Assembly (NCBI RefSeq): GCF_000012925.1
Contig: NC_007517.1
Coordinates: forward strand, 3,060,001 to 3,092,000
Source: Geobacter metallireducens GS-15
GTDB lineage: Bacteria > Desulfobacterota > Desulfuromonadia > Geobacterales > Geobacteraceae
Length of the DNA stretch: 32,000 nucleotides
Reading direction: 5' to 3'
The position numbers were made by a program, and so were the translations under genes. Numbering within the stretch: position 1 is the first letter of the stretch; every line of letters starts with the position of its first letter. Shown piece after piece: positions 2,882 to 32,000 of this stretch. The notes beneath the pieces are model-generated. The model was not told the origin of the DNA, did no database searches, and saw only the letters and a list, made by a program, of their open reading frames with translations.

Positions 2882-4126
2882 ATGGGAGCAACCACGGAAC
2901 AAAGCAACGGCAACATCCTCATCATCGAAGACAGCCCCACCCAGTCAGCACAACTTCGCCACATCATGGAAACGAACGGCTACCACGTCATTTCGGCCTG
3001 CAACGGCAGGGAGGCCCTGGCGCTCCTTTCCGGGCAGACACCTTCTCTTATCATCAGCGACGTCATCATGCCGGGAATCGACGGCTATGAGCTGTGCCGC
3101 AGGATCAAGGAACGGGAAGATTCCAGGAACATACCCGTCATCCTCCTGACCTCCCTTTCCGATCCCCATGATGTCATCAGGGGGCTCGAGTGCGGCGCCG
3201 ACAATTTCATCACCAAGCCCTGCAACGAGAAGCACCTTCTCTCCCGTGTCAGCTACCTGCTGGAAAGCCGGAATCCATGCCAGATCGAAGCGCGATCAGG
3301 CCTTGAAATCCTCTTCGGCGGAGAACGCTACTGCATAACCGCGGACCGCAGGCAGATCCTCGACCTCCTCCTCTGCACCTACGAAACCGCCATTCAGAAG
3401 AATGACGCACTGATCAGGGCGCAGGACGAACTGAGCCGGCTCAACCAGCAACTCGAAACCACGAACCGTGAGCTGGAGGCATTCAACTACACGGTTTCCC
3501 ACGACCTCCGCTCCCCCCTGACAAACATCAGCGGCTACTGCCAGGTGCTTCAGGAACTCCACGGCGACACCCTTGATCCTACCTGCCAGGATTACATCCA
3601 GGAAATATATCGGGCGACCATGCGGATGAACGACCTGATCGGCGACCTGATGGAATTTTCGCGGCTGAACCACCAGGAACTGCAGCGGCAGGAGGTGAAT
3701 CTCAGCACCATGGCCCGCATCATTGCCGTGGAACTGAAATCGAAAGACAGGGAGCGGCGGGTCGAGTTCAGAATCGCCGATGGAATCGTCGGCAACGGGG
3801 ACTCGCGGCTGCTGCAACTGGTGCTGGTGAACCTCCTGGGGAATGCCTGGAAGTACACCGGCAAAAAGGAGAACGCCGTGATCGAGTTCGGCGTCACCAA
3901 TACTGAGGGGAAAGAGGTCTACTTCGTCCGCGACAACGGAGCAGGCTTCGACATGGCCGAGGCCCACCGCCTTTTCGGCACCTTTCAGCGCCTGCACAGC
4001 AAGCAGGAGTTCGAAGGAACCGGCATCGGCCTTGCCACGGTTCAGCGCATCATCCAGCGGCATGGGGGAAGTATCCGGGGCGAGGGAGAGGTCGGAAAGG
4101 GAGCAACCTTTTACTTCACGCTGTAA
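2882..4126 (+). CDS. Response-receiver / histidine kinase hybrid (REC-coiled coil-HisKA-HATPase_c)
   Basis: ATG lies 1 nt after the cheB stop. REC (ILIIEDS..LIISDVIMPGIDG..K), H-box SHDLRSPL, N-box LLGNAWKY, DNGAGF and GTGIGLA. Confidence 0.9.
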   Translation: MGATTEQSNGNILIIEDSPTQSAQLRHIMETNGYHVISACNGREALALLSGQTPSLIISDVIMPGIDGYELCRRIKEREDSRNIPVILLTSLSDPHDVIRGLECGADNFITKPCNEKHLLSRVSYLLESRNPCQIEARSGLEILFGGERYCITADRRQILDLLLCTYETAIQKNDALIRAQDELSRLNQQLETTNRELEAFNYTVSHDLRSPLTNISGYCQVLQELHGDTLDPTCQDYIQEIYRATMRMNDLIGDLMEFSRLNHQELQRQEVNLSTMARIIAVELKSKDRERRVEFRIADGIVGNGDSRLLQLVLVNLLGNAWKYTGKKENAVIEFGVTNTEGKEVYFVRDNGAGFDMAEAHRLFGTFQRLHSKQEFEGTGIGLATVQRIIQRHGGSIRGEGEVGKGATFYFTL

Positions 4127-5500
4127 TTACTTGATCCCCCCCGCCACCTTCTGCAGCACCTCCCAGCTCTTCAGGAGATCCAGGGCACGGGCGAGCTGAA
4201 AGTCCTTCTTCGCATCATCCTCCGGCCCAACGGCGTGCCGTGCGGGTTGCCCCTTTTTCCCACTCTCCTCGTTCTTTTCAATCGGCCCCTTTGCGGGAAC
4301 CGCGTCCTTCCCTCCCCCCAGGTGATTGTCCAGATCCTTCTCGTGGAAGTCCTCCCGCCTGTCCTTGGTCACGCTCTTCAGTTCGGCATTCTCCACGATG
4401 ACGTCGGGTATGATTCCCCTAGCCTGGATGGAGCGCCCCTTGGGAGTGTAGTAGAGGGCCGTGGTGAGCTTGAGCCCGGCGCCGTCCTTCATGGGGATTA
4501 CGGTCTGGACCGACCCCTTGCCGAAGCTGGGGGTTCCCATGATGACAGCCCGGCCATAGTCCTGCAGCGCGCCGGCCACGATCTCCGAGGCACTGGCGCT
4601 GCCGCTGTTGATGAGCACCACCAGGGGATACGGGGGTTCCTTCTCGCCGACGGTGGCACTGAAACGCCGCTTGGCGAACTCCTCGCGCCCCTCGGTGTAG
4701 ACGATGAGGCCATTGTCGAGCCGCTCACCCACGAAGCGGCCGGCCACCGCCACCGCCACCTCCAGAAGCCCGCCGGGGTTGTTGCGCAGGTCGAGCACGA
4801 GCCCCTTGAGAGTACCGCCGTTCTCGGCCCTGAGGTTCCGCAGGGCATTGGCGAAATCCTCTCCGGTCCGCTCCTGGAAGTGGCTGATCCGCACATAGCC
4901 GTACCCGGGCTCCAGGCTCCTGGCCTTGAGGCTCTTGGTCTGGATAATGTCCCGCACGAGGGGAAACTCCCGGGGCTCCGTTTCGCCATTGCGCAGGATC
5001 GTGAGAGTCACCTTCGTCCCCCGCTCCCCCCGCATTTTTTTCACCGCCTGAACGATGGTGAGGTCGCGGGTGGGGGTGCCGTCGATCTTCCAGATATGGT
5101 CTCCGGCCTTGATGCCGGCCCGCCAGGCGGGGGTATCCTCAATGGGTGAAATAACCGTGAGCTTTCCCTCCTTCAGGGCAATCTCGATACCGAGGCCGCC
5201 GAAAGAGCCGGATATCTCCACCTTCATCTCCGAGAACGGCTCGGGAGGTAGATAGGCACTGTGGGGATCGAGGGCGGCGAGCATCCCGTTGACGGCCCCT
5301 TCCAGAAGCTTCTTCCGGTCCACCCTCTCCACGTAGTTCTCTTCCACTTGGCGGAGCACTTCGGCCAAAAGCTTCAGGGAAGCCACCCCTTCACGGTCGG
5401 GGGCGGTTGCGGCAAGCCGCCAGAGGGTGGCACCGCCGAAGGCGAGGCAGGCAATCACAGCCATGAGTCCCAGGGTAATCTTCGTTCTCGTCTGCACCAT
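4127..5500 (-). CDS. ctpA: Carboxy-terminal processing protease, S41 family, with PDZ domain
   Basis: N-terminal membrane anchor, PDZ domain (GLGIEI.., AGIKAGDHIWKIDG), catalytic Ser region (NSGSASASEI) and Lys region (SFGKGSVQ). I trimmed the ORF-track start (5560) to the ATG at 5500 (MVQTRTKITLG..), just before the hydrophobic segment. The start is uncertain. Confidence 0.88.
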   Translation of the reverse strand: MVQTRTKITLGLMAVIACLAFGGATLWRLAATAPDREGVASLKLLAEVLRQVEENYVERVDRKKLLEGAVNGMLAALDPHSAYLPPEPFSEMKVEISGSFGGLGIEIALKEGKLTVISPIEDTPAWRAGIKAGDHIWKIDGTPTRDLTIVQAVKKMRGERGTKVTLTILRNGETEPREFPLVRDIIQTKSLKARSLEPGYGYVRISHFQERTGEDFANALRNLRAENGGTLKGLVLDLRNNPGGLLEVAVAVAGRFVGERLDNGLIVYTEGREEFAKRRFSATVGEKEPPYPLVVLINSGSASASEIVAGALQDYGRAVIMGTPSFGKGSVQTVIPMKDGAGLKLTTALYYTPKGRSIQARGIIPDVIVENAELKSVTKDRREDFHEKDLDNHLGGGKDAVPAKGPIEKNEESGKKGQPARHAVGPEDDAKKDFQLARALDLLKSWEVLQKVAGGIK

Positions 5501-23233: not shown

Positions 23234-25585
<2,352 letters not shown>

Positions 25586-25722
25586 AGATACGCAGCAATG
25601 ATTTCATTTTGCTAGACCCGACCCCGCCCCCTGAGCCCTCCACTGTGGCGCATCTGGGTCTGGGCATCGCCGGGTGGCGTCGGAACAAGAACTGAACCGA
25701 CACGCCCATTCGTTACGCGCAG

Positions 25723-25754
25723 AAAGAGGCTTCCTGTTCGGGAAGCCTCTTTTT
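25723..25754. terminator. Bidirectional rho-independent terminator (acyP / radical SAM gene)
   Basis: AAAGAGGCTTCC-tgttcg-GGAAGCCTCTTT followed by more Ts. The A-run on the other side allows use on both strands. Confidence 0.75.
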
Positions 25755-25780
25755 CGTTCAACAGCGTTGGAAAGTCGAAG

Positions 25781-27106
25781 TCAGCGGATCGGCCAGCTCT
25801 TCTCCAGTCCCTCGGGGTAGAAGTTCTCCCGGGTCCGGTTGTAGTAGCCGTACTGGATCCGGGGAAACTCCCGCTTCACCCGCTCCAGCATCCGGTACAT
25901 GCCGATCCCCCGTCCCGTGACCCCCATCCGTTTATTGTAGAAGTCGGGATCGATGGAGAGGTTCCGCATCTGGATCATGTCCAGGCCGGTGTCGCCGATG
26001 AACCGCAGGAGCGCCTCCACCTCGTCGGCATTGTCGGAGAGCCCTGGCGAGACCAGGTAGTTGATCATCACGAAAAGCCCCCGTTCCTTGGCCAGCCGCA
26101 CCGATTCCTTCACGTCGGCGAAGCGGTACCCCACCGGCCGGTAGTATTTGTCGTAAAACTCCTCCCGCACCGAATTCATGGAAAAGCGCATAGAGTCCAT
26201 CCCCGCGTCGCAGAGCATGGCGATCCGGTCGAGGAAGGAGCCGTTGGAGTTGAAGTTCACGATTCCCCGGCTGGTGGCCTTCTTCAGCCGCCGGGTCGCC
26301 TCGGCCACGGTGTCGGCCTGCATGATGGGATCCCCCTCGCACCCCTGGCCGTAGGAGACGATGGGCTCCGGCGCCTGCTCCAGGTGCGGCAGGGCCAGCT
26401 CCACGATCTCCTCGGGCGTGGGGACGAAGCCGATCCGCTCGTGATTGGACGGGCAGCAGTCCGAGGGCTGGAGGCTGATGCACCCCAGGCACCGGGAGTT
26501 GCAGGCCGGCGACGTGGGTAGCGGCGCCTCCCAGCGGCGGAAGAAAAGGTTCTTGGCGGCGAAGCAGTGGTAATCCACGGCGCAGCGGGCAAGCTGCTCC
26601 AGGAGGCGGTTGTTGGGCATCTCCGCCAGCCGCTGTCGCACCAGGGGATCCAGCTTCCGGTCGTCGTAGTTGTTCGGGTTCCAGTTGTCGTTGGTATCCA
26701 CCCTTGAGGCGGCCACCACGAAGCAGTCCCGCTCCTCGTCCCACCCCACGGCGGTGTAGGACCAGAGCGGCAGGTGCACCTTCTTCCTGCCGTAATCGCA
26801 AGCGGGAAGCAGCGTCCGCACGTACCCCGGCGCCATGAAGGCCGACACCGCCTGCACCGGCAGGTTTCGCCGCCCCTCCCGGACCGTGGGCACGGTCACG
26901 AATTTCCGCTGCTTCTCGTCCCAGGCAACTGGCGGGGTATCGGGGATGGTGAAGAGCCGGCTCCCCTCGGGGAGCGGAATCAGCTCAACCCCCTCGGGGA
27001 GCACCGCCTCGGGGCCGCTCATGCCGGCCATGCAGAGGTCGGGGTGGTCGAAGATGTTCCCCTTGGCGTCGGCATAGAGGAGTTTTGGAAGGGTTTTTCG
27101 TTTCAT
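25781..27106 (-). CDS. Radical SAM protein with ~190-aa uncharacterised N-terminal domain
   Basis: CNSRCLGC (CX3CX2C) cluster motif around residue 200 and a GQGCEGDP glycine-rich SAM motif. There is no SPASM or B12 domain. It starts 50 nt downstream of the chrA pair on the same strand. Confidence 0.85.
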   Translation of the reverse strand: MKRKTLPKLLYADAKGNIFDHPDLCMAGMSGPEAVLPEGVELIPLPEGSRLFTIPDTPPVAWDEKQRKFVTVPTVREGRRNLPVQAVSAFMAPGYVRTLLPACDYGRKKVHLPLWSYTAVGWDEERDCFVVAASRVDTNDNWNPNNYDDRKLDPLVRQRLAEMPNNRLLEQLARCAVDYHCFAAKNLFFRRWEAPLPTSPACNSRCLGCISLQPSDCCPSNHERIGFVPTPEEIVELALPHLEQAPEPIVSYGQGCEGDPIMQADTVAEATRRLKKATSRGIVNFNSNGSFLDRIAMLCDAGMDSMRFSMNSVREEFYDKYYRPVGYRFADVKESVRLAKERGLFVMINYLVSPGLSDNADEVEALLRFIGDTGLDMIQMRNLSIDPDFYNKRMGVTGRGIGMYRMLERVKREFPRIQYGYYNRTRENFYPEGLEKSWPIR

Positions 27107-27156
27107 GGCGTTACCTTACCACGGACCGGTGAGCGTTGCCAACCGGCCATGATCTT

Positions 27157-27681
27157 TCAGGAAAAATGAAGAAAATACCCCAGCGCTCCGGCGCCGAGGA
27201 TGACGAAGAGGGGACTCACCTTCGTGAACTGGAGAATGGCGAAGCCGGCGACGAAGAGGAGAATGTCCCGCGCCGAGCCGAGGGAGGTGCTCCCCAGCTT
27301 CCAGCCGGCGGACGCCACGAGCCCCACCACGGCCGGCACGACCCCGTCCAGCACCTCGCGGATCAGGCGAATGTTCCGCAGCCGCTCGTAGCGCCGGGTA
27401 AGGAAGACCATGAGGGCGGTACAGGGGAGGAAGATCGCGACGGTCCCCACCAGGGCGCCGGCAAAGCCTCCGGCCCGGTATCCCACGAAGGTGGCGAGGA
27501 TCGCCAGGGGGCCGGGGGTGAGTTGGGAGAGGGCCAGTCCGTCCAGGAACTCCTTCATGGTGAGCCAGTGGTACTGGTCCACCATGATCCGGTGGAGAAG
27601 CGGAATGAGGACGTACCCTCCCCCCACGAAGACCAGGCCGATCTTCAGGAACGTCCAGGCAATGGTGGCAAGGGACCCCAT
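27157..27681 (-). CDS. chrA: Chromate ion transporter (CHR) family, short-chain half, second subunit
   Basis: FLKIGLVFVGGGYVLIPLL..EFLDGLALSQLTPGP is the CHR signature. I set the start at the ATG at 27681, which overlaps the upstream TGA by 1 nt (TGATG). Confidence 0.85.
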   Translation of the reverse strand: MGSLATIAWTFLKIGLVFVGGGYVLIPLLHRIMVDQYHWLTMKEFLDGLALSQLTPGPLAILATFVGYRAGGFAGALVGTVAIFLPCTALMVFLTRRYERLRNIRLIREVLDGVVPAVVGLVASAGWKLGSTSLGSARDILLFVAGFAILQFTKVSPLFVILGAGALGYFLHFS

Positions 27682-28235
27682 CAGTGGTGCACCTGACGGA
27701 ACCGGGCCCGGGCCAGGGACCAGAAGGCGGTCAGAGCCAGGAGCGCGAGGCCGTTCACCTGGAAGAACGCGGCGAGCCCGAAGGTGAGAAGGGCGATGGC
27801 CCACGGCTCCACACCGCGAATCTTGCGGCCCATGCCAATGGCCGCCACCAGGATCAGGGCGATGATGACGGGGTTGGTCCCCTGCAGGGCCGACTGGAGT
27901 TCGGGAAGTTCATGGTAGCGGAAGTAGAGGAGCGAAAGGAATGAGACAATCAGAAACGACGGGAGGATGAAGGCGAACGCGGCCACGGTGCCCCCGATGC
28001 GGCCCCGGAGGGTGCACCCGACGAAGGTGCAGGAATTGAGGGAGAAGGGGCCCAGGAACTGCCCGAAGGCGAGGCCGTGCATGAACTCCTCGTGGCTGAG
28101 CCATTCCTTGTCGTGGACGCAGACCCGTTCCACCAGGGCCACCACCGCCATCCCCCCGCCGAAGCCGGTAACACCGATGATGAGGAACGTGCGAAAAATT
28201 TCCCCGAGGGATACCCGATTACCTGTCGTTTCCAT
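27681..28235 (-). CDS. chrA: Chromate ion transporter (CHR) family, short-chain half, first subunit
   Basis: FLIIGVTGFGGGMAVVALV..EFMHGLAFGQFLGPFS is the CHR signature. I chose the start at ATG 28235 (METTGNRV..); 28259 is also possible. Confidence 0.82.
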   Translation of the reverse strand: METTGNRVSLGEIFRTFLIIGVTGFGGGMAVVALVERVCVHDKEWLSHEEFMHGLAFGQFLGPFSLNSCTFVGCTLRGRIGGTVAAFAFILPSFLIVSFLSLLYFRYHELPELQSALQGTNPVIIALILVAAIGMGRKIRGVEPWAIALLTFGLAAFFQVNGLALLALTAFWSLARARFRQVHH

Positions 28236-28297
28236 GTAATTCCTTATAGCAAGGGGCATCCGTGGGGGGCAAGGGAAAAGCCATACGGTATACGTGC

Positions 28298-28327
28298 TTG
28301 CATAGAATCTTCTGGTAAAATTATACT
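28298..28327 (+). promoter_or_regulatory. Candidate sigma-70 promoter for the BioD/DRTGG gene
   Basis: TTGCAT, an 18-nt spacer, then TATACT. This is a pattern match only. Confidence 0.35.
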
Positions 28328-28360
28328 CGTCGTTTGGGTAGTGGATCTCAGCGGTCAGAG

Positions 28361-29470
28361 ATGGAAGCGATCACCATGTGCAAGAAGGTTTTCATCGCGG
28401 CAACGGGAATGAACTCGGGCAAGACCACCATCAGCGTCTCGCTGATGCACCTGGCCCGGAAAAAGTACGGCAGGGTCGGCTTCATCAAGGCCATCGGCCC
28501 CAAGTGCCAGCTCTTCAACGATATCACCGTCGACATGGACGCGGCCCTCATGGCGCGCATCTTCGGCCTCGAAGGGGACATCAACCATATGTCGCCGGTA
28601 GTGCTGGAGCGGGGCTCCACCAAGCGCTTCATCGACGGGGAGATCCCCACCCTCTGGCCCGCGGAGCGGATCACCGAAGCAGTGCGGGAGTTGGAGCGGA
28701 AAAACGACTACCTCATCATCGAAGGATCGGGCCACGGCGGGGTCGGTTCCGTCATCGGCATGAACAACGCCAAGGTGGCCAAGCTGGTGGATGCCCCGGC
28801 CATCATGGTCTCCGGCGGCGGCATCGGCAACGTCATCGACTCAGTCCAGCTGAACCTCCCCCTCTACCGGATGGAGGGAGCCGACCTGCGGATGCTCCTG
28901 GTCAACAAGCTCATCCCCGAGAAGCGGGAGACCTCCCTCTCCTACCTCCAGCGGGCCTTCACCCCCCACGGCATCAACGTCGTCGGGGCCTTCGACTGGT
29001 CGCCGATCCTCGCCAACCCCACCCTCAACAACATTGCGCGGCTCCTGGCCCACCCCCTCAGGGGGGACCAGAGCCAGGGGACCCGGATCATCCACCATAT
29101 CCAACTGGGGGCAGCCTCGTCCCAGAAGGTCATCGACGGACTTGCCGAATCGACCATGCTCCTGGTCACCAGCTCCCGGGACGAGCTCCTCGTCACCCTC
29201 TCGTCCCTCTACAACATCCCCGCCTACCGGGAGAAGATCGCCGGCCTCGTGGTTCCCGGCCACGCGCCGGTCTCCGCCATCACCCAGAAGATCCTCGACG
29301 ACAGCTCCATCCCCTACATCCGGATCCACGAGACCACCGCCGACATCTTCTCGGCCATGAAATACCACGTCTCCAAGATCAGCGCCGAAGACGCCGAGAA
29401 GATCGATCTCGTCAAGGCCCAGGCGGAAAAGGTGCTGGATTTCGACGAACTGGACCGGATGCTGTCATAG
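28361..29470 (+). CDS. BioD-like P-loop + DRTGG-type domain protein resembling the N-terminal (non-catalytic) half of long phosphotransacetylases
   Basis: KKVFIAATGMNSGKTTISVSLMHLARKK..GFIKAIGP resembles the Pta N-terminus and BioD-like P-loop. LIIEGSGHGGVG and a later LLVTSSRDELL segment resemble a DRTGG domain. No PTA_PTB domain is present. The start is ambiguous (28361 or 28376). Confidence 0.65.
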   Translation: MEAITMCKKVFIAATGMNSGKTTISVSLMHLARKKYGRVGFIKAIGPKCQLFNDITVDMDAALMARIFGLEGDINHMSPVVLERGSTKRFIDGEIPTLWPAERITEAVRELERKNDYLIIEGSGHGGVGSVIGMNNAKVAKLVDAPAIMVSGGGIGNVIDSVQLNLPLYRMEGADLRMLLVNKLIPEKRETSLSYLQRAFTPHGINVVGAFDWSPILANPTLNNIARLLAHPLRGDQSQGTRIIHHIQLGAASSQKVIDGLAESTMLLVTSSRDELLVTLSSLYNIPAYREKIAGLVVPGHAPVSAITQKILDDSSIPYIRIHETTADIFSAMKYHVSKISAEDAEKIDLVKAQAEKVLDFDELDRMLS

Positions 29471-30805
29471 GGGGCAGGGCGAGGGGTGTAATTCCCTCTC
29501 CCCGTGGGAGAGGGTGCCCGGAGGGCGGGTGAGGGGATATTCGCCTCGCCGCACCATCGCCTCAAGGGTCGCGTCCAGGTACTCCCGCTGGCATGCCACA
29601 CCGTCCACCGCACCCGTTTCCACCAGCCTCATGAAGCGGCAGCCACCGAAGCAGAGGGGGAGGTAGGCGCAGTCGAGGCACTCCTCCTGCTTCCAGGCGT
29701 CCATCCCGTACGCGTCCCCTGCGCTGCCGGCGCCGTTTCGTAGATGGCCGGCAACGAACGCCGGCCGGCCGATGAAGGCGGGACAGCGGTAGATGGCCCC
29801 ATCGGTGTCGACCACCAGATCGGTGTCGAACTCCACCATGCAGGCGGCCGGGGCCGGTTTAGACGTCAGGTACCCTCGTTTCACGATCTCCTCCCGAAGG
29901 ACGAGGGACGCCTCCACGAGCCACGGCTCAGTGAGTCCGCCGCACCCTTCCGAAAAGTCGGGAAGCCCCGCAACACCCTCCCGGCCGATCACCGGATCGA
30001 ACCTGACGAGACGGACCCGCTCCGGGGTGAGCCCCGCGACAGGGAGAATGTCGAGGAGTTGGGGGAACTCCCGCCAGGTGTCGCGGGTGTAGTTCCCGCC
30101 GATGGCGATGCCGATCAGGCCGCACACCTCCCGCAGGTTGGCGATGATCGCGGCAAAGCTCCCCTCTCCCGAGACAAAGGGACGCAGCCGGTCATGGATT
30201 TGCGGCGGGCCGTCGAGGGTCACCTTGGCGCCGTCCAGGCCGAGGGGGAGAAGATCTTTCACCAGCGTCCGGGTGAGGAGGGTACCGTTGGTGACCAGGC
30301 TGAAGGAAAACCGGTCGCCGCCGGTCGCCCGCAGCGGTCCGGCGATCCGGCGGATCAGGTCGGGGCGCAGCAGCGCCTCGCCGCCGTAGAAATTGAGCGA
30401 GACCCTCCGTCCCCGGGCCAGGTGTTCCCGCTCCACCAAGGATACGAAGAGGTCGGCGGTCTCCCCGTCCATCTGGCGCAGGCTCGGCTGATTCGCCTCG
30501 AAGCAGTAAGGGCAGGCGAGGTTGCAGGCCCGGGTCAGGACCACCACGGCGCTGCAGCGGCGCCGCCGCGCGTTGATCCGGTCGAACCAGGCGAGCATCT
30601 CCCGCTGCTCCGTTCCCGGGTCTTCGGCGAGAAAGCCGTGGCGGGAGAGGGTTTCGGCGGGCTTAGGCGAAAGGGTGCCGCCGCGGGCGGCTTCGAGGAG
30701 GGGGGCGGGTACGCGGAGCACCGCTCCGGTGCGGCAGGAGAAGAGAATGAGATGGCCCGGCTGCTCCGTGCAGGGGAAGACTTTCACGTGGCGGGAGAGG
30801 ATCAT
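29465..30805 (-). CDS. Radical SAM / SPASM-domain peptide-modifying enzyme (RiPP maturase candidate)
   Basis: CNLACPYC (CX3CX2C). The SPASM signature is complete: C-X13-G-X4-C (CMVEFDTDLVVDTDGAIYRC) plus CLDCAYLPLCFGGC (CX2CX5CX3C). The N-terminal ~90 aa are of the type seen in peptide maturases (..GHLILFSCRTGAVLRVPAPLLEAA). I trimmed the start to the ATG at 30805, because the ORF-track start at 30895 would overlap the short ORF. Confidence 0.9.
   Translation of the reverse strand: MILSRHVKVFPCTEQPGHLILFSCRTGAVLRVPAPLLEAARGGTLSPKPAETLSRHGFLAEDPGTEQREMLAWFDRINARRRRCSAVVVLTRACNLACPYCFEANQPSLRQMDGETADLFVSLVEREHLARGRRVSLNFYGGEALLRPDLIRRIAGPLRATGGDRFSFSLVTNGTLLTRTLVKDLLPLGLDGAKVTLDGPPQIHDRLRPFVSGEGSFAAIIANLREVCGLIGIAIGGNYTRDTWREFPQLLDILPVAGLTPERVRLVRFDPVIGREGVAGLPDFSEGCGGLTEPWLVEASLVLREEIVKRGYLTSKPAPAACMVEFDTDLVVDTDGAIYRCPAFIGRPAFVAGHLRNGAGSAGDAYGMDAWKQEECLDCAYLPLCFGGCRFMRLVETGAVDGVACQREYLDATLEAMVRRGEYPLTRPPGTLSHGERELHPSPCPL
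29471..29535 (-). repeat. REP-like palindromic element, copy 3 (reverse orientation), embedded in the 3' end of the SPASM maturase ORF
   Basis: The reverse complement reads CCCCTCACCCgccctccgggcaCCCTCTCCcacgGGGAGAGGGaattacacccctcgccctgcccc. The first ~45 nt match copies 1 and 2. Confidence 0.75.
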
Positions 30806-30816
30806 GGCTACCCCCA

Positions 30817-30845
30817 AAAGAGCCGGGGGAACCCGTCCCCCGGCT
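30817..30845 (-). terminator. Hairpin with short U-tract between precursor ORF and maturase (candidate leaky terminator/attenuator)
   Basis: AGCCGGGGGA-cgggt-TCCCCCGGCT forms a perfect 10-bp GC-rich stem. On the minus strand it is followed by CTTTTGGGGG, and the maturase ATG lies 11 nt after the T-run. Confidence 0.55.
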
Positions 30846-30875
30846 AAATACACCGCACGCCATCGCAAGCATCCG

Positions 30876-30980
30876 TTAAAAGAAGAAAGCAACACTCACC
30901 GTGCAACAGGCCAGGGGCCCATCGGCCGACTCCTCAACCCCTTCGTCGAGAACAACCACTTCCTCACGTTCCTCAGTCAT
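30876..30980 (-). CDS. 34-aa candidate RiPP precursor peptide MTEEREEVVVLDEGVEESADGPLACCTVSVAFFF (not in ORF track)
   Basis: ATG at 30980 and TAA at 30876-30878. A strong SD (GGAAGGAGGT, 30988-30997) sits 8 nt upstream. The first half is acidic and leader-like, and the tail is hydrophobic and contains Cys-Cys. The ORF lies 70 nt upstream of, and co-oriented with, the SPASM enzyme. Confidence 0.6.
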   Translation of the reverse strand: MTEEREEVVVLDEGVEESADGPLACCTVSVAFFF

Positions 30981-31148
30981 GGCGCTCACCTCCTTCCGTT
31001 GACCTCGCCTTGGCGGCAGCAGCAAAATAACGGGTGACACAACAAAACTTTCCTGCTAAAAATCCGGAAAATTGTTCTCACCTCGCGCAACGTCAAATAA
31101 CCAGGACCCATAACATTCACAAGCAACTCACATGCCCGAATCGCCATC

Positions 31149-31212
31149 AATCAACGACGTTATTGAATCCTCCCACCCCCCCTTGGGGAGCCGGGCAAAT
31201 ACGTCGTTGATT
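31149..31212 (+). promoter_or_regulatory. Perfect 12-nt inverted repeat forming a 64-nt stem-loop immediately upstream of the TonB-dependent receptor start
   Basis: aatcaacgacgt (31149-31160) pairs with acgtcgttgatt (31201-31212). An inner ctccc/gggag pairing is also possible. The 3' arm ends 3 nt before the ATG at 31216. Confidence 0.4.
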
Positions 31213-31215
31213 CGC

Positions 31216-32000
31216 ATGGTTATCTCGGCACTTCTCGTCTGTTTCACCCTTCTTTTCACCGGTGCCCCCCCCCTCCACGCCGCAGAGGAGAGTGACTCAA
31301 ATTTGTTGGAGCTCTACTACGAGCCCAGCGATTTGGCGGTATCAGCCGCCACCCGCTCCCCCCGCCCCCTTTCCCGCAGCGCCGAAGACATCACCGTGGT
31401 CACCGCCGCGGAGATCGAGGCCCAGAACGCCCATAACCTGGCAGAGGTGCTGAACAGGGTCCCCGGGGTCCAGGTCGACCTGCGGGGTGGACTCGTCACC
31501 GACTACTCGCTGCTGGGCTCCAGTTTCCGCCATGTCCTGGTCCTCGTGGATGGCGTCTCCATGAGCAATCTGTCCGACAACGCCGCGGTCATCGCCCAGA
31601 TCCCGGTGGGGAACATCGAACGGATCGAAATCGTGAAGGGGCCGGCCTCCACGGCCTGGGGCTCCGCCCTGGGGGGGGTCATCAACGTTATCACTAAATC
31701 CCCCCGGGAAACTGCCATCCCCGGCGGGTCCGCCTCCTTCTCCGGGGGGGAGCGCGGCACCCGCGACGCCCAAGGCGAGCTGACCGGGACCATGGGACGG
31801 CTGGGCTACTACCTCTCGGGCGGCAACGTCCGGTCCGACGGCTTCCGCCCCCATAATGCCTCCGACAGCAACAACCTCTATGCCAAGCTCCTCTGGAGCC
31901 TCCGCGACAAGGGGAGCATCCGCTTCACCATCAACTACCTCAAGGGTGCAGCGGGCGAAGGGGTCTTCCCGCTCCCCGCCCGGCTGCTCCCCATTCTGTC
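31216..32000 (+). CDS. TonB-dependent outer-membrane receptor (plug domain and start of barrel); 3' end truncated by the window edge
   Basis: I translated frame 1 by hand. It has a signal peptide (MVISALLVCFTLLFTGAPPLHA-AEE) and plug motifs (ITVVTAAEIEAQNAHNLAEVLNRVPGVQVD, VLVDGVSMSN, IERIEIVKGPASTAWGSALGGVINVITK). The frame is open to base 32000. It is absent from the ORF track because it has no stop codon. The start is uncertain; an in-frame ATG at 31132 also exists. Confidence 0.88.
   Translation, partial: MVISALLVCFTLLFTGAPPLHAAEESDSNLLELYYEPSDLAVSAATRSPRPLSRSAEDITVVTAAEIEAQNAHNLAEVLNRVPGVQVDLRGGLVTDYSLLGSSFRHVLVLVDGVSMSNLSDNAAVIAQIPVGNIERIEIVKGPASTAWGSALGGVINVITKSPRETAIPGGSASFSGGERGTRDAQGELTGTMGRLGYYLSGGNVRSDGFRPHNASDSNNLYAKLLWSLRDKGSIRFTINYLKGAAGEGVFPLPARLLPIL

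Follow-up and report, generated by a model that had tools for sequence, protein, structure and literature searches.

A geopeptide precursor gene and its maturase

The 32,000-nucleotide stretch of Geobacter metallireducens GS-15 DNA analyzed here (NC_007517.1, positions 3,060,001 to 3,092,000; from now on the window, numbered from its first letter) includes a gene pair composed of a very short open reading frame (ORF) and a radical S-adenosylmethionine (SAM) enzyme with a SPASM region, which correspond to the geopeptide precursor and the geopeptide radical SAM maturase. The short ORF lies on the minus strand at 30980-30876, with its ATG at 30980 and a TAA stop at 30878-30876, and codes for the 34-amino acid peptide MTEEREEVVVLDEGVEESADGPLACCTVSVAFFF. 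Its layout consists of an acidic leader in which Asp or Glu occupy nine of the first 20 positions and which includes the motif VVVLDEG, a Gly-Pro dipeptide at positions -5 and -4, the pair Cys25-Cys26, and the 8-residue hydrophobic tail TVSVAFFF. It is preceded by the Shine-Dalgarno (SD) sequence GGAAGGAGGT (30997-30988, minus strand), which ends 7 nt before the ATG; the original prediction was right about this strong site and gave the distance as 8 nt. The other elements that it described, namely the 34-codon ORF with its acidic residues, the cluster motifs given below, and a 446-amino acid enzyme starting 70 nt downstream of the precursor stop on the same strand (ATG at 30805), are all present in the sequence. 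Since short ORFs are frequent in this 63% G+C DNA (52 of at least 25 amino acids per 5 kb), a 34-codon ORF alone is weak evidence of a gene, and comparison with other loci was therefore needed. The peptide scores 34.5 bits with the NCBIfam model TIGR04229, named 'geopeptide' (curated cut-off 30, E 1.1e-08), residues 8-30 spanning the whole 22-position model, and an exact-sequence look-up gave WP_004511725.1, 'geopeptide [Geobacter metallireducens]', as an identical entry. In the GS-15 GenBank record as first deposited the precursor is not annotated, as ABB32952 and ABB32953 are consecutive.

The maturase gene encompasses nucleotides 30805 to 29465 of the minus strand, and the initiating Met at 30805 is backed by the alignment. 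The protein matches the maturase model TIGR04280 with 673.3 bits (cut-off 400; residues 1-420 on model positions 1-423 of 428), PF04055 with 54.9 bits (gathering score 29.5), and the SPASM model TIGR04085 with 49.8 bits (cut-off 27; residues 322-400). Its sequence is identical to ABB32952.1 / WP_004511726.1, 'geopeptide radical SAM maturase'. The two geopeptide models named in the original prediction are thus both matched above their curated cut-offs, as are the two general ones, and RefSeq uses the same names. The radical SAM cluster motif C94-NLA-C98-PY-C101 (CX3CX2C; 30503-30526, minus strand) is invariant in the maturase alignment. The SPASM region (29591-29842, minus strand) includes the motif YLPLCFGGCR and residues C322, C341, C376, C379, C385, C389 and C405, with C288 located just upstream and with the spacings C322-X13-G336-X4-C341 and C376-X2-C379-X5-C385-X3-C389. 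These eight Cys residues outside CX3CX2C are also invariant, and their number is enough for two auxiliary [4Fe-4S] clusters. [quoted passage not shown]

An AlphaFold2 model of the maturase built with 16 sequences (pLDDT, the predicted local distance difference test score, 72; pTM, the predicted template modeling score, 0.70) consists of an N-terminal beta3-alpha3 domain, a partial TIM barrel and a less confident C-terminal region. A Foldseek comparison of this model to the PDB ranked CteB first (5why/5wgg, E 2e-18, 438 aligned columns over the whole length of the model), followed by TigE, anSME, SuiB and SkfB, and CteB was the best PDB match by sequence as well (E 1.9e-15). The last 25 or so residues are unconserved and have low pLDDT; the maturase of a G. 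grbiciae-like contig is 16 amino acids shorter, and the final complete block of 40 alignment columns contains 18 differences, gap columns included. The 3' end of the gene overlaps by 6 nt (29465-29470) that of a convergent AAA_26/DRTGG gene.

That CteB forms thioethers fits the Cys chemistry suggested by the precursor, and thioether formation at the Cys pair is the most likely activity of the maturase by analogy to these relatives, a proposal to which we give about an even chance. The next NCBIfam models, all far below their cut-offs, were CefB, TIGR04463, PapB, the Clo7bot peptide maturase, the nif11-peptide maturase, QhpD, CcpM and the SCIFF maturase. Scores with the characterized thioether families fell short of membership (PapB 108 bits with a cut-off of 340, SCIFF 69 of 425, QhpD 91 of 453, and RumMC 57 of 720). 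The models for PqqE and MftC were not among the best 25 of 73 NCBIfam matches, and PqqE was found in the PDB at E 8e-05 only. The geopeptide maturase would work most like the Cys-directed enzymes of the CteB/SCIFF and PapB types, with which, as with QhpD, it has in common a radical SAM barrel, a Cys-containing peptide as substrate, a SPASM region predicted to hold two auxiliary clusters and a presumed N-terminal peptide-binding domain, without being a member of those families. CteB/SCIFF-type substrates carry several spaced Cys residues with Asp, Glu or Thr acceptors, whereas the geopeptide has one Cys-Cys pair; in addition, and unlike in those systems, the geopeptide genes occur in a Gram-negative host and have a receptor gene linked to them. 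The nearest outgroups by hidden Markov model (HMM), CefB (Cys-every-fifth) and the TIGR04463 Cys-rich-peptide maturases (114-187 bits), likewise combine a radical SAM/SPASM enzyme with short Cys peptides, but the peptide families are different and geopeptide maturases stay below their cut-offs of 600 and 525. To our knowledge neither of these two maturase groups has been characterized.

Conservation of the precursor and selection on its two parts

Two collection scans supplied the loci used for comparison, which are designated here by L numbers: they comprised 18 orthologous loci from genomes and 80 loci from metagenomes, with 490 relatives carrying the family-specific motif YLPLCFGG found in the second scan. 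Nine divergent maturases (within L001-L016; Nitrospirota, Thermodesulfovibrionales, Desulfobulbales and a metagenome-assembled genome labeled Pseudomonadota) pass TIGR04280 with 468-589 bits. L019, from Omnitrophota, was rejected as an orthologue with 268 bits against the cut-off of 400, as were L021-L080 (mostly Lachnospiraceae, about 25% identity); all of these belong to other radical SAM/SPASM families.

An in-frame ORF with a Cys-Cys pair was found upstream of the maturase gene in all 18 genome loci with upstream flank, at a distance of 1.7 kb in the case of L009, and in 55 of the 57 metagenome loci whose upstream sequence is 350 nt or longer, with L140 a doubtful case among the 55. The arrangement of Cys-Cys peptide and maturase is thus present in about 75 loci, distributed over Geobacteraceae, Desulfobulbales and Nitrospirota, a range wider than the Desulfuromonadales, in which the original prediction proposed to search for the peptide beside orthologous maturases. 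When 76 distinct peptides were compared by position, the Cys-Cys pair was the sole invariant feature. A leader motif, (I/V/L)(I/V)(V/L)L(D/E/K)xG, lies 11-12 residues ahead of it; Pro is found at -4 in 38 peptides and Gly at -5 in 28. Tails are 7-13 residues long (median 9) and show preferences for small residues at +2/+3, for F, L or Y at +4 (46/76), for Pro at +6 (28/76) and for Arg at +8 (39/73), so that the tails of many relatives fit the pattern CC-x-(G/T)-(G/S/A)-Phi-x-P-Phi-R. Phe, Tyr and Trp make up 16% of the residues in the tails as compared to 3% in the leaders. The peptide model TIGR04229 catches just nine of 21 divergent precursors, although their maturases all pass TIGR04280.

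Several precursors depart from this layout. In three loci of Nitrospirota/Thermodesulfovibrionales (L007:5709-5948, L008:5704-5949, and L126) they are 79-81 amino acids long and keep the Cys-Cys pair and the tail, with the VVLDxG leader replaced by a Lys/Ala/Thr-rich, histone H1-like N-terminal extension (e.g., MKKVAAKKPAKKKTVAKKTTAKK...). In general, Geobacter-type loci have acidic leaders, and those from Nitrospirota and Desulfobulbales have basic ones. An apparent tandem of geopeptide genes was found about 310 nt upstream of the maturase gene in L166, where a second SD sequence and MKEERIIIIDEG... directly follow the stop of the first peptide.

The leader and the core are under different selection. 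Compared to L081, whose maturase is 76% identical, residues 1-26 of the precursor accumulated 12.5 synonymous and 4.5 non-synonymous differences (non-synonymous rate, dN, 0.08; synonymous rate, dS, about 2). Compared to L085, the G. grbiciae-like contig, whose maturase is 95-97% identical, the leader has a dN of 0.034 and a dS of 0.35 (dN/dS about 0.1), while five amino acid changes in the eight tail codons give a dN of 0.335, to be set against 0.03 for the maturase. Taking these comparisons together, dN is 0.03-0.08 in the leader, with a dN/dS of about 0.04-0.1, and 0.26-0.50 in the core. Purifying selection thus acts on the leader, and divergence is fast in the core. A conserved leader joined to a variable core under different selection is, at the level of sequence, what characterizes a RiPP precursor, and together with the family models it backs the earlier reading of the locus as a RiPP-type precursor with a radical SAM/SPASM maturase.

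The simplest alternative would be that the short ORF arose by chance or is an RNA-level element, and that the maturase acts on another substrate. This could account for the missing annotation in the GS-15 GenBank record and for the abundance of short ORFs in the G+C-rich DNA of the window. It is effectively refuted by the comparative data: the frame, the invariant Cys-Cys pair and the leader motif are kept across phyla while the DNA is unalignable, and the excess of synonymous changes in the leader, the above-cut-off HMM score and a strong SD sequence (of the GGAGG type, within 60 nt ahead of the start codon) visible in almost every one of the 18 loci inspected argue in the same direction. Conservation beside orthologous maturases, proposed in the original prediction as a check, could have turned out to be limited to the nucleotide level with frameshifts; it is in frame, with purifying selection on the leader. 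Because of the in-frame conservation, the synonymous bias in the leader and the HMM score, we regard it as practically certain that the precursor ORF is a real gene and that the locus is a geopeptide pair.

A receptor, a binding protein and a sensor kinase linked to the pair

The 5' part of a gene for a TonB-dependent receptor, coding for a signal peptide and a Plug domain (Pfam Plug, E 6.7e-24), starts on the plus strand at about 31213, divergent from the precursor, and is cut by the end of the window at 32000. The Logan contig L086, which is 100% identical to the window from 24105 to 32000 and extends past its end, carries the rest of the receptor gene (ABB32953) followed, after a gap of 21 nt, by a gene for a 287-amino acid binding protein of the PF04392 family (ABB32954) and, after a gap of 7 nt, by a gene for a 523-amino acid HAMP histidine kinase (ABB32955). 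The receptor has about 630 amino acids, with Plug and barrel and without an STN signaling domain. According to topology predictions the binding protein has a signal peptide, and the kinase spans the membrane twice, with a periplasmic loop of about 125 amino acids between the two transmembrane segments and ahead of HAMP. All three linked proteins are thus assigned to the cell envelope.

An all-against-all comparison of neighboring ORFs, Pfam annotation and tblastn over the metagenome loci agree in identifying these genes as conserved companions of the pair. A TonB-dependent receptor adjoins the peptide in 39 of the 40 loci with at least 2.6 kb of upstream sequence, and receptor, PF04392 ('ABC_sub_bind') protein and HAMP kinase are found together in 21 of 22 fully flanked loci. 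Three gene orders were observed. In the Geobacter type (12 loci) the genes for receptor, binding protein and kinase are transcribed in that order, divergently from peptide and maturase; in seven loci the binding protein and kinase genes, in that order, diverge from a series receptor-peptide-maturase; and in two loci receptor, peptide, maturase, binding protein and kinase follow each other in the same direction. As the linkage survives rearrangement across phyla, these genes appear to form a functional unit. Among 44 loci with long flanks, the conserved families were the receptor (43 loci), the maturase (41, with three more in an antisense shadow-ORF cluster), the binding protein (36) and the kinase (33). 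A response regulator of the sigma-54-activator type was present in 17 of them (about 40%), and the next commonest family in five. The geopeptide cassette is therefore part of a conserved module of five to six genes and probably does not stand alone, and its description as minimal in the original prediction needs to be corrected. The one exception among metagenome loci with more than 3 kb on both flanks is L098, which has a maturase homologue (at about 3674-5026) and neither receptor, binding protein, kinase nor a recognizable Cys-Cys peptide nearby.

No gene for an ATP-binding cassette (ABC) permease or ATPase is conserved near the module. A relative of the binding protein with 36% identity lies again in a full geopeptide module, and two others (33%) are encoded directly before a HAMP kinase and a response regulator (L170:7001-9935 and L171:5167-8721) in loci that include no receptor, radical SAM gene or ABC permease. 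Because relatives pair with HAMP kinases in the absence of those genes, the sequence comparisons suggest that the PF04392 protein is a co-sensor of the kinase rather than part of an importer. The pairing in L170 and L171 also suggests that this is a general sensor arrangement. Structures have been solved for the binding protein's relatives 3lkv, 3lft and 6hni, which we take to bind aromatic amino acids; in view of the aromatic-rich tails of the geopeptides this constitutes a lead and not a test.

Between G. metallireducens and the L085 strain, the genes of the module have omega values of 0.19-0.39 while that of the neighboring AAA_26 gene is 0.05. The dS is similar across all genes (0.09-0.13), and the peptide tail changes ten-fold faster than the module genes. 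A signal and a sensor that co-diversify would look like this, on the basis of a single strain pair.

The original prediction noted the lack of a protease, exporter or immunity gene in cis, which agrees with the 44 long-flank loci, and took it as a hint of an intracellular or cofactor-like role. In such a case the modified peptide would not leave the cytoplasm, where it would serve as cofactor, redox mediator or regulator, and the sensor genes would detect another ligand and control its production. The precursor has no signal peptide, cofactors made by radical SAM/SPASM enzymes have precedents in pyrroloquinoline quinone (PQQ) and mycofactocin, and control of the operon by sigma-54 or a two-component system is plausible. 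However, the conserved neighbors include neither a partner dehydrogenase nor any other enzyme that uses a cofactor; the maturase has no close relationship to PqqE or MftC, and the partner genes of the PQQ and mycofactocin pathways (PqqB/C/D; MftB, D, E, F) are not conserved either. Five of the eight tail residues changed between strains whose maturases differ at 3-5% of residues, which is unexpected for the precursor of a cofactor, and in many loci the receptor gene is co-transcribed with, and immediately upstream of, the peptide gene. We consider this explanation quite improbable, and a purely intracellular role in particular is disfavored because of the conserved linkage to receptor and sensor.

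The same linkage raises the possibility of a metallophore or nutrient shuttle, in which the Cys peptide, fully or partly modified, would be released, bind a metal or scarce ligand, and be recovered via the receptor, its loaded form being sensed by binding protein and kinase. Parallels exist in methanobactin, with MbnT and MbnE, and in the sensing of siderophores by PfeS/PfeR/PfeA. In favor of it are the tight linkage of the RiPP genes to those for receptor and periplasmic binding protein and the invariance of the Cys-Cys pair, and the receptor resembles BtuB- and siderophore-type models, with weak matches below the cut-offs among which the name of the PqqU model is also found; besides, Geobacter lives on metal chemistry. 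A vitamin B12 riboswitch ahead of the BtuB-like receptor was excluded as no Rfam family matched in the window. Weak NCBIfam matches of the receptors of L001, L082 and the window fragment include models for selenocysteine-containing TonB-dependent receptors with CU, PUIUD, PCPU and FCYXU motif types; they are far below the cut-offs and probably reflect generic receptor similarity. On the other hand, just two potential ligand residues are conserved in the geopeptide, and the likely thioether chemistry would consume their thiols. Neither MbnB/MbnC-type (DUF692-type) genes, nor an ABC permease for cytoplasmic import, nor an exporter are conserved nearby, no metal-responsive riboswitch or known RNA element was found, and a tail that diversifies fast is unexpected at a metal-binding site. 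A shuttle of this kind is unlikely.

Fast divergence of the tail between close relatives would instead be readily understood if the peptide were a narrow-spectrum bacteriocin that kills relatives, the tail reflecting an arms race and the receptor being either the entry route into the target or an element of self-regulation. Sactipeptides and some ranthipeptide-like products are antimicrobial, and TonB-dependent receptors are common entry gates for bacteriocins. Nevertheless, the 44 long-flank loci have no conserved immunity gene and no conserved dedicated ABC or C39 exporter, an uptake receptor encoded beside a toxin gene would sensitize the producer, and the conserved pair of binding protein and kinase would be left without a role. 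This makes a bacteriocin very unlikely.

Expression signals

A terminator- or attenuator-like hairpin with a 10-bp G+C-rich stem, AGCCGGGGGA-CGGGU-UCCCCCGGCU followed by CUUUU, is located at 30845-30816 of the minus strand, between the precursor stop and the maturase start, and L081 and L085 carry the same element. In 59 of 75 loci a hairpin followed by a T-run was found no more than 90 nt after the stop of the peptide gene, compared to 42 of 1,500 random windows taken from the same loci (2.8%), with stems that are unrelated in sequence between loci. The folding energy alone is not significantly different from that of shuffled sequences (z -1.1), so the support for the hairpin comes from its positional conservation and not from the energy. 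We infer that it is a leaky terminator that leaves the precursor in excess over the enzyme, as in many RiPP operons. The spacer between peptide and maturase is enlarged to about 300 nt in the Geobacter-type loci L082 (5696-5990), L084 (7670-7990) and L089, which share a palindromic element, CCCCCACGTACTTTCTTTGGGCG(G/C)CCAAAGAAAGTACGCAAAGAAAACCGCCCCC, possibly an insertion similar to repetitive extragenic palindromic sequences or to miniature inverted-repeat transposable elements; the window does not have it.

A predicted sigma-54-type -24/-12 element, GGGCATGTGAGTTGCT (31137-31122, minus strand), faces the precursor 142 nt upstream of its ATG and lies within a block that is 100% conserved with L085. 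L081, L082 and L084 have the sequence TGGCAT-N5-TTGC 125-160 nt ahead of the peptide start, and L089 has it in a comparable intergenic position; a weaker related element, GGGCATGCATGTTGCG, occupies the same position in L097, L121 and L147. The background rate of such elements is 0.04-0.05 per kb. A scan with a relaxed threshold found peptide-facing elements in the Geobacter-type subclade, and GGCAC-N5-CTGCT faces the receptor operon in seven of the 14 activator-containing loci scanned. A sigma-54 promoter ahead of the peptide in the whole family would account for the adjacent activators; when the metagenome loci were scanned at a sigma-54 score of at least 9, matches were obtained in L108 alone, neither of them resembling a sigma-54 box. 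On these sequence matches a sigma-54 promoter is suggestive and not general for the family. A conserved box, TA(T)AGCAG(A/G), is present between the sigma-54-like element and the SD sequence, some 60-80 nt ahead of the ATG of the peptide (31045-31065 of the window, minus strand; also in L081, L082 and L084), and could be a regulator site or a region of transcript start. A sigma-70 promoter scan gave matches on the plus strand only, irrelevant to the minus-strand precursor, and no Rfam families or riboswitches were found in the whole window, intergenic region included.

Other genes in the window

The AAA_26/DRTGG gene convergent with that of the maturase occupies nucleotides 28376 to 29470 of the plus strand, approximately. 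Two chromate-transporter halves follow on the minus strand (27157-28259), where synteny is limited to close Geobacter relatives, and with them is syntenic a gene for a second radical SAM protein of 441 amino acids (25781-27106, minus strand), which has PF04055 at residues 197-369, weak MoaA-like similarity, and about 190 N-terminal residues that have no family match. The window genes downstream of the maturase were rejected as parts of the module since they are syntenic in close Geobacter relatives only.

A possible uptake-and-sensing circuit

The features described above can be put together in the following way. The sigma-54-type promoter would drive the peptide-maturase operon, and the hairpin after the peptide gene would end most transcripts, so that precursor exceeds enzyme. 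The RRE-like N-terminal domain of the maturase would bind the leader motif, and the enzyme, by means of 5'-deoxyadenosyl radical chemistry and its auxiliary clusters, would modify the Cys-Cys pair, most likely by linking it to residues of the tail through thioethers, as in sacti- or ranthipeptides. The mature peptide would then exit the cell, be carried back across the outer membrane by the receptor, and be captured in the periplasm by the binding protein, with the kinase reporting its presence. The module would thus be a circuit for uptake and sensing of a peptide signal or shared molecule, rather than an intracellular cofactor pathway. We consider this model as a whole, from modification and release to import by the receptor and periplasmic sensing, to be plausible at slightly less than an even chance; for the step of import and sensing taken by itself our estimate ranges from there down to about one in three. 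It is possible, but on the unlikely side, that the module is an undescribed Gram-negative circuit for peptide communication or a public good, in which a cross-linked peptide with a strain-specific tail is released, imported again and read by the PF04392/HAMP-kinase pair, often with a sigma-54 activator. In that circuit the peptide tail and the sensor genes would co-diversify in the manner of pherotypes, an idea that we hold as tentatively as the circuit itself.

A number of observations weigh against the uptake-and-sensing model. As to release, the 44 long-flank loci show no conserved linked gene for an exporter or for a leader protease. As to the modification, the chemistry is deduced from relatives that all score below their own family cut-offs, the AlphaFold2 model is moderately confident (pLDDT 72), and the N-terminal 90 residues of the maturase give no PqqD/RRE match in Pfam, even at E 10. 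The tail residues that could be acceptors of cross-links vary, and the G. metallireducens tail does not have the common Pro and Arg. As to regulation, sigma-54-type elements were found ahead of the peptide in part of the family and not elsewhere in it, and no sigma-54 activator was seen beside the G. metallireducens kinase in contig L086. Gene linkage indicates a functional connection and not its direction, and the sensor could be one that answers to a different ligand by controlling how the peptide is produced. Finally, the literature searches found no expression or product data for the geopeptide.

Relation to known systems

The window locus is a member of the computationally defined geopeptide pair TIGR04229/TIGR04280 and does not differ from it in the pair itself. 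As the pair is already known and named in RefSeq, it is not a discovery; it is catalogued but uncharacterized, as the original prediction anticipated, and no report of its chemistry, product or function was found in the literature searched. Full-text searches found no publication on the geopeptide family, and the locus goes unmentioned in the paper on the G. metallireducens genome. The linkage of the pair to receptor, binding protein and sensor kinase, which was not found described in the literature searched, is the new point.

Uptake of a small molecule derived from a RiPP through a dedicated TonB-dependent receptor takes place with methanobactin (MbnT) and PQQ (PqqU), and the methanobactin cluster also encodes a binding protein, MbnE. 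The coupling of RiPP genes to a TonB-dependent receptor is common to the geopeptide module and to both of these systems, and that to a binding protein to methanobactin as well. Unlike them, the geopeptide module has other modifying enzymes, no MbnB/C or PqqA-E genes and no inner-membrane transporter, and its binding protein is paired with a kinase. In this last respect it is similar to LuxP-LuxQ and TorT-TorS, where a secreted binding protein is encoded beside a kinase with a periplasmic loop and ABC permease genes are absent, but the geopeptide binding protein belongs to the PF04392 family. We know of no PF04392/HAMP-kinase pair that has been characterized. PfeS/PfeR-PfeA resembles the module in the linkage of a receptor gene to a two-component sensor, and in the geopeptide case the receptor is in the same operon.

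The unit to study consists of five or six genes and not two. Members of the geopeptide family occur far outside Geobacter, and most of the divergent precursors escape the curated peptide model; the module is found widely among lineages of anaerobic sediments (Geobacteraceae, Desulfobulbales, and Nitrospirota/Thermodesulfovibrionia). G. metallireducens is genetically tractable, and the module is concrete and testable in this organism. If the mature peptide is indeed recognized by receptor, binding protein and kinase, the module would offer a rare example of signaling or sharing based on a RiPP in Gram-negative anaerobes, and it would also provide a first function for PF04392/HAMP-kinase sensor pairs.

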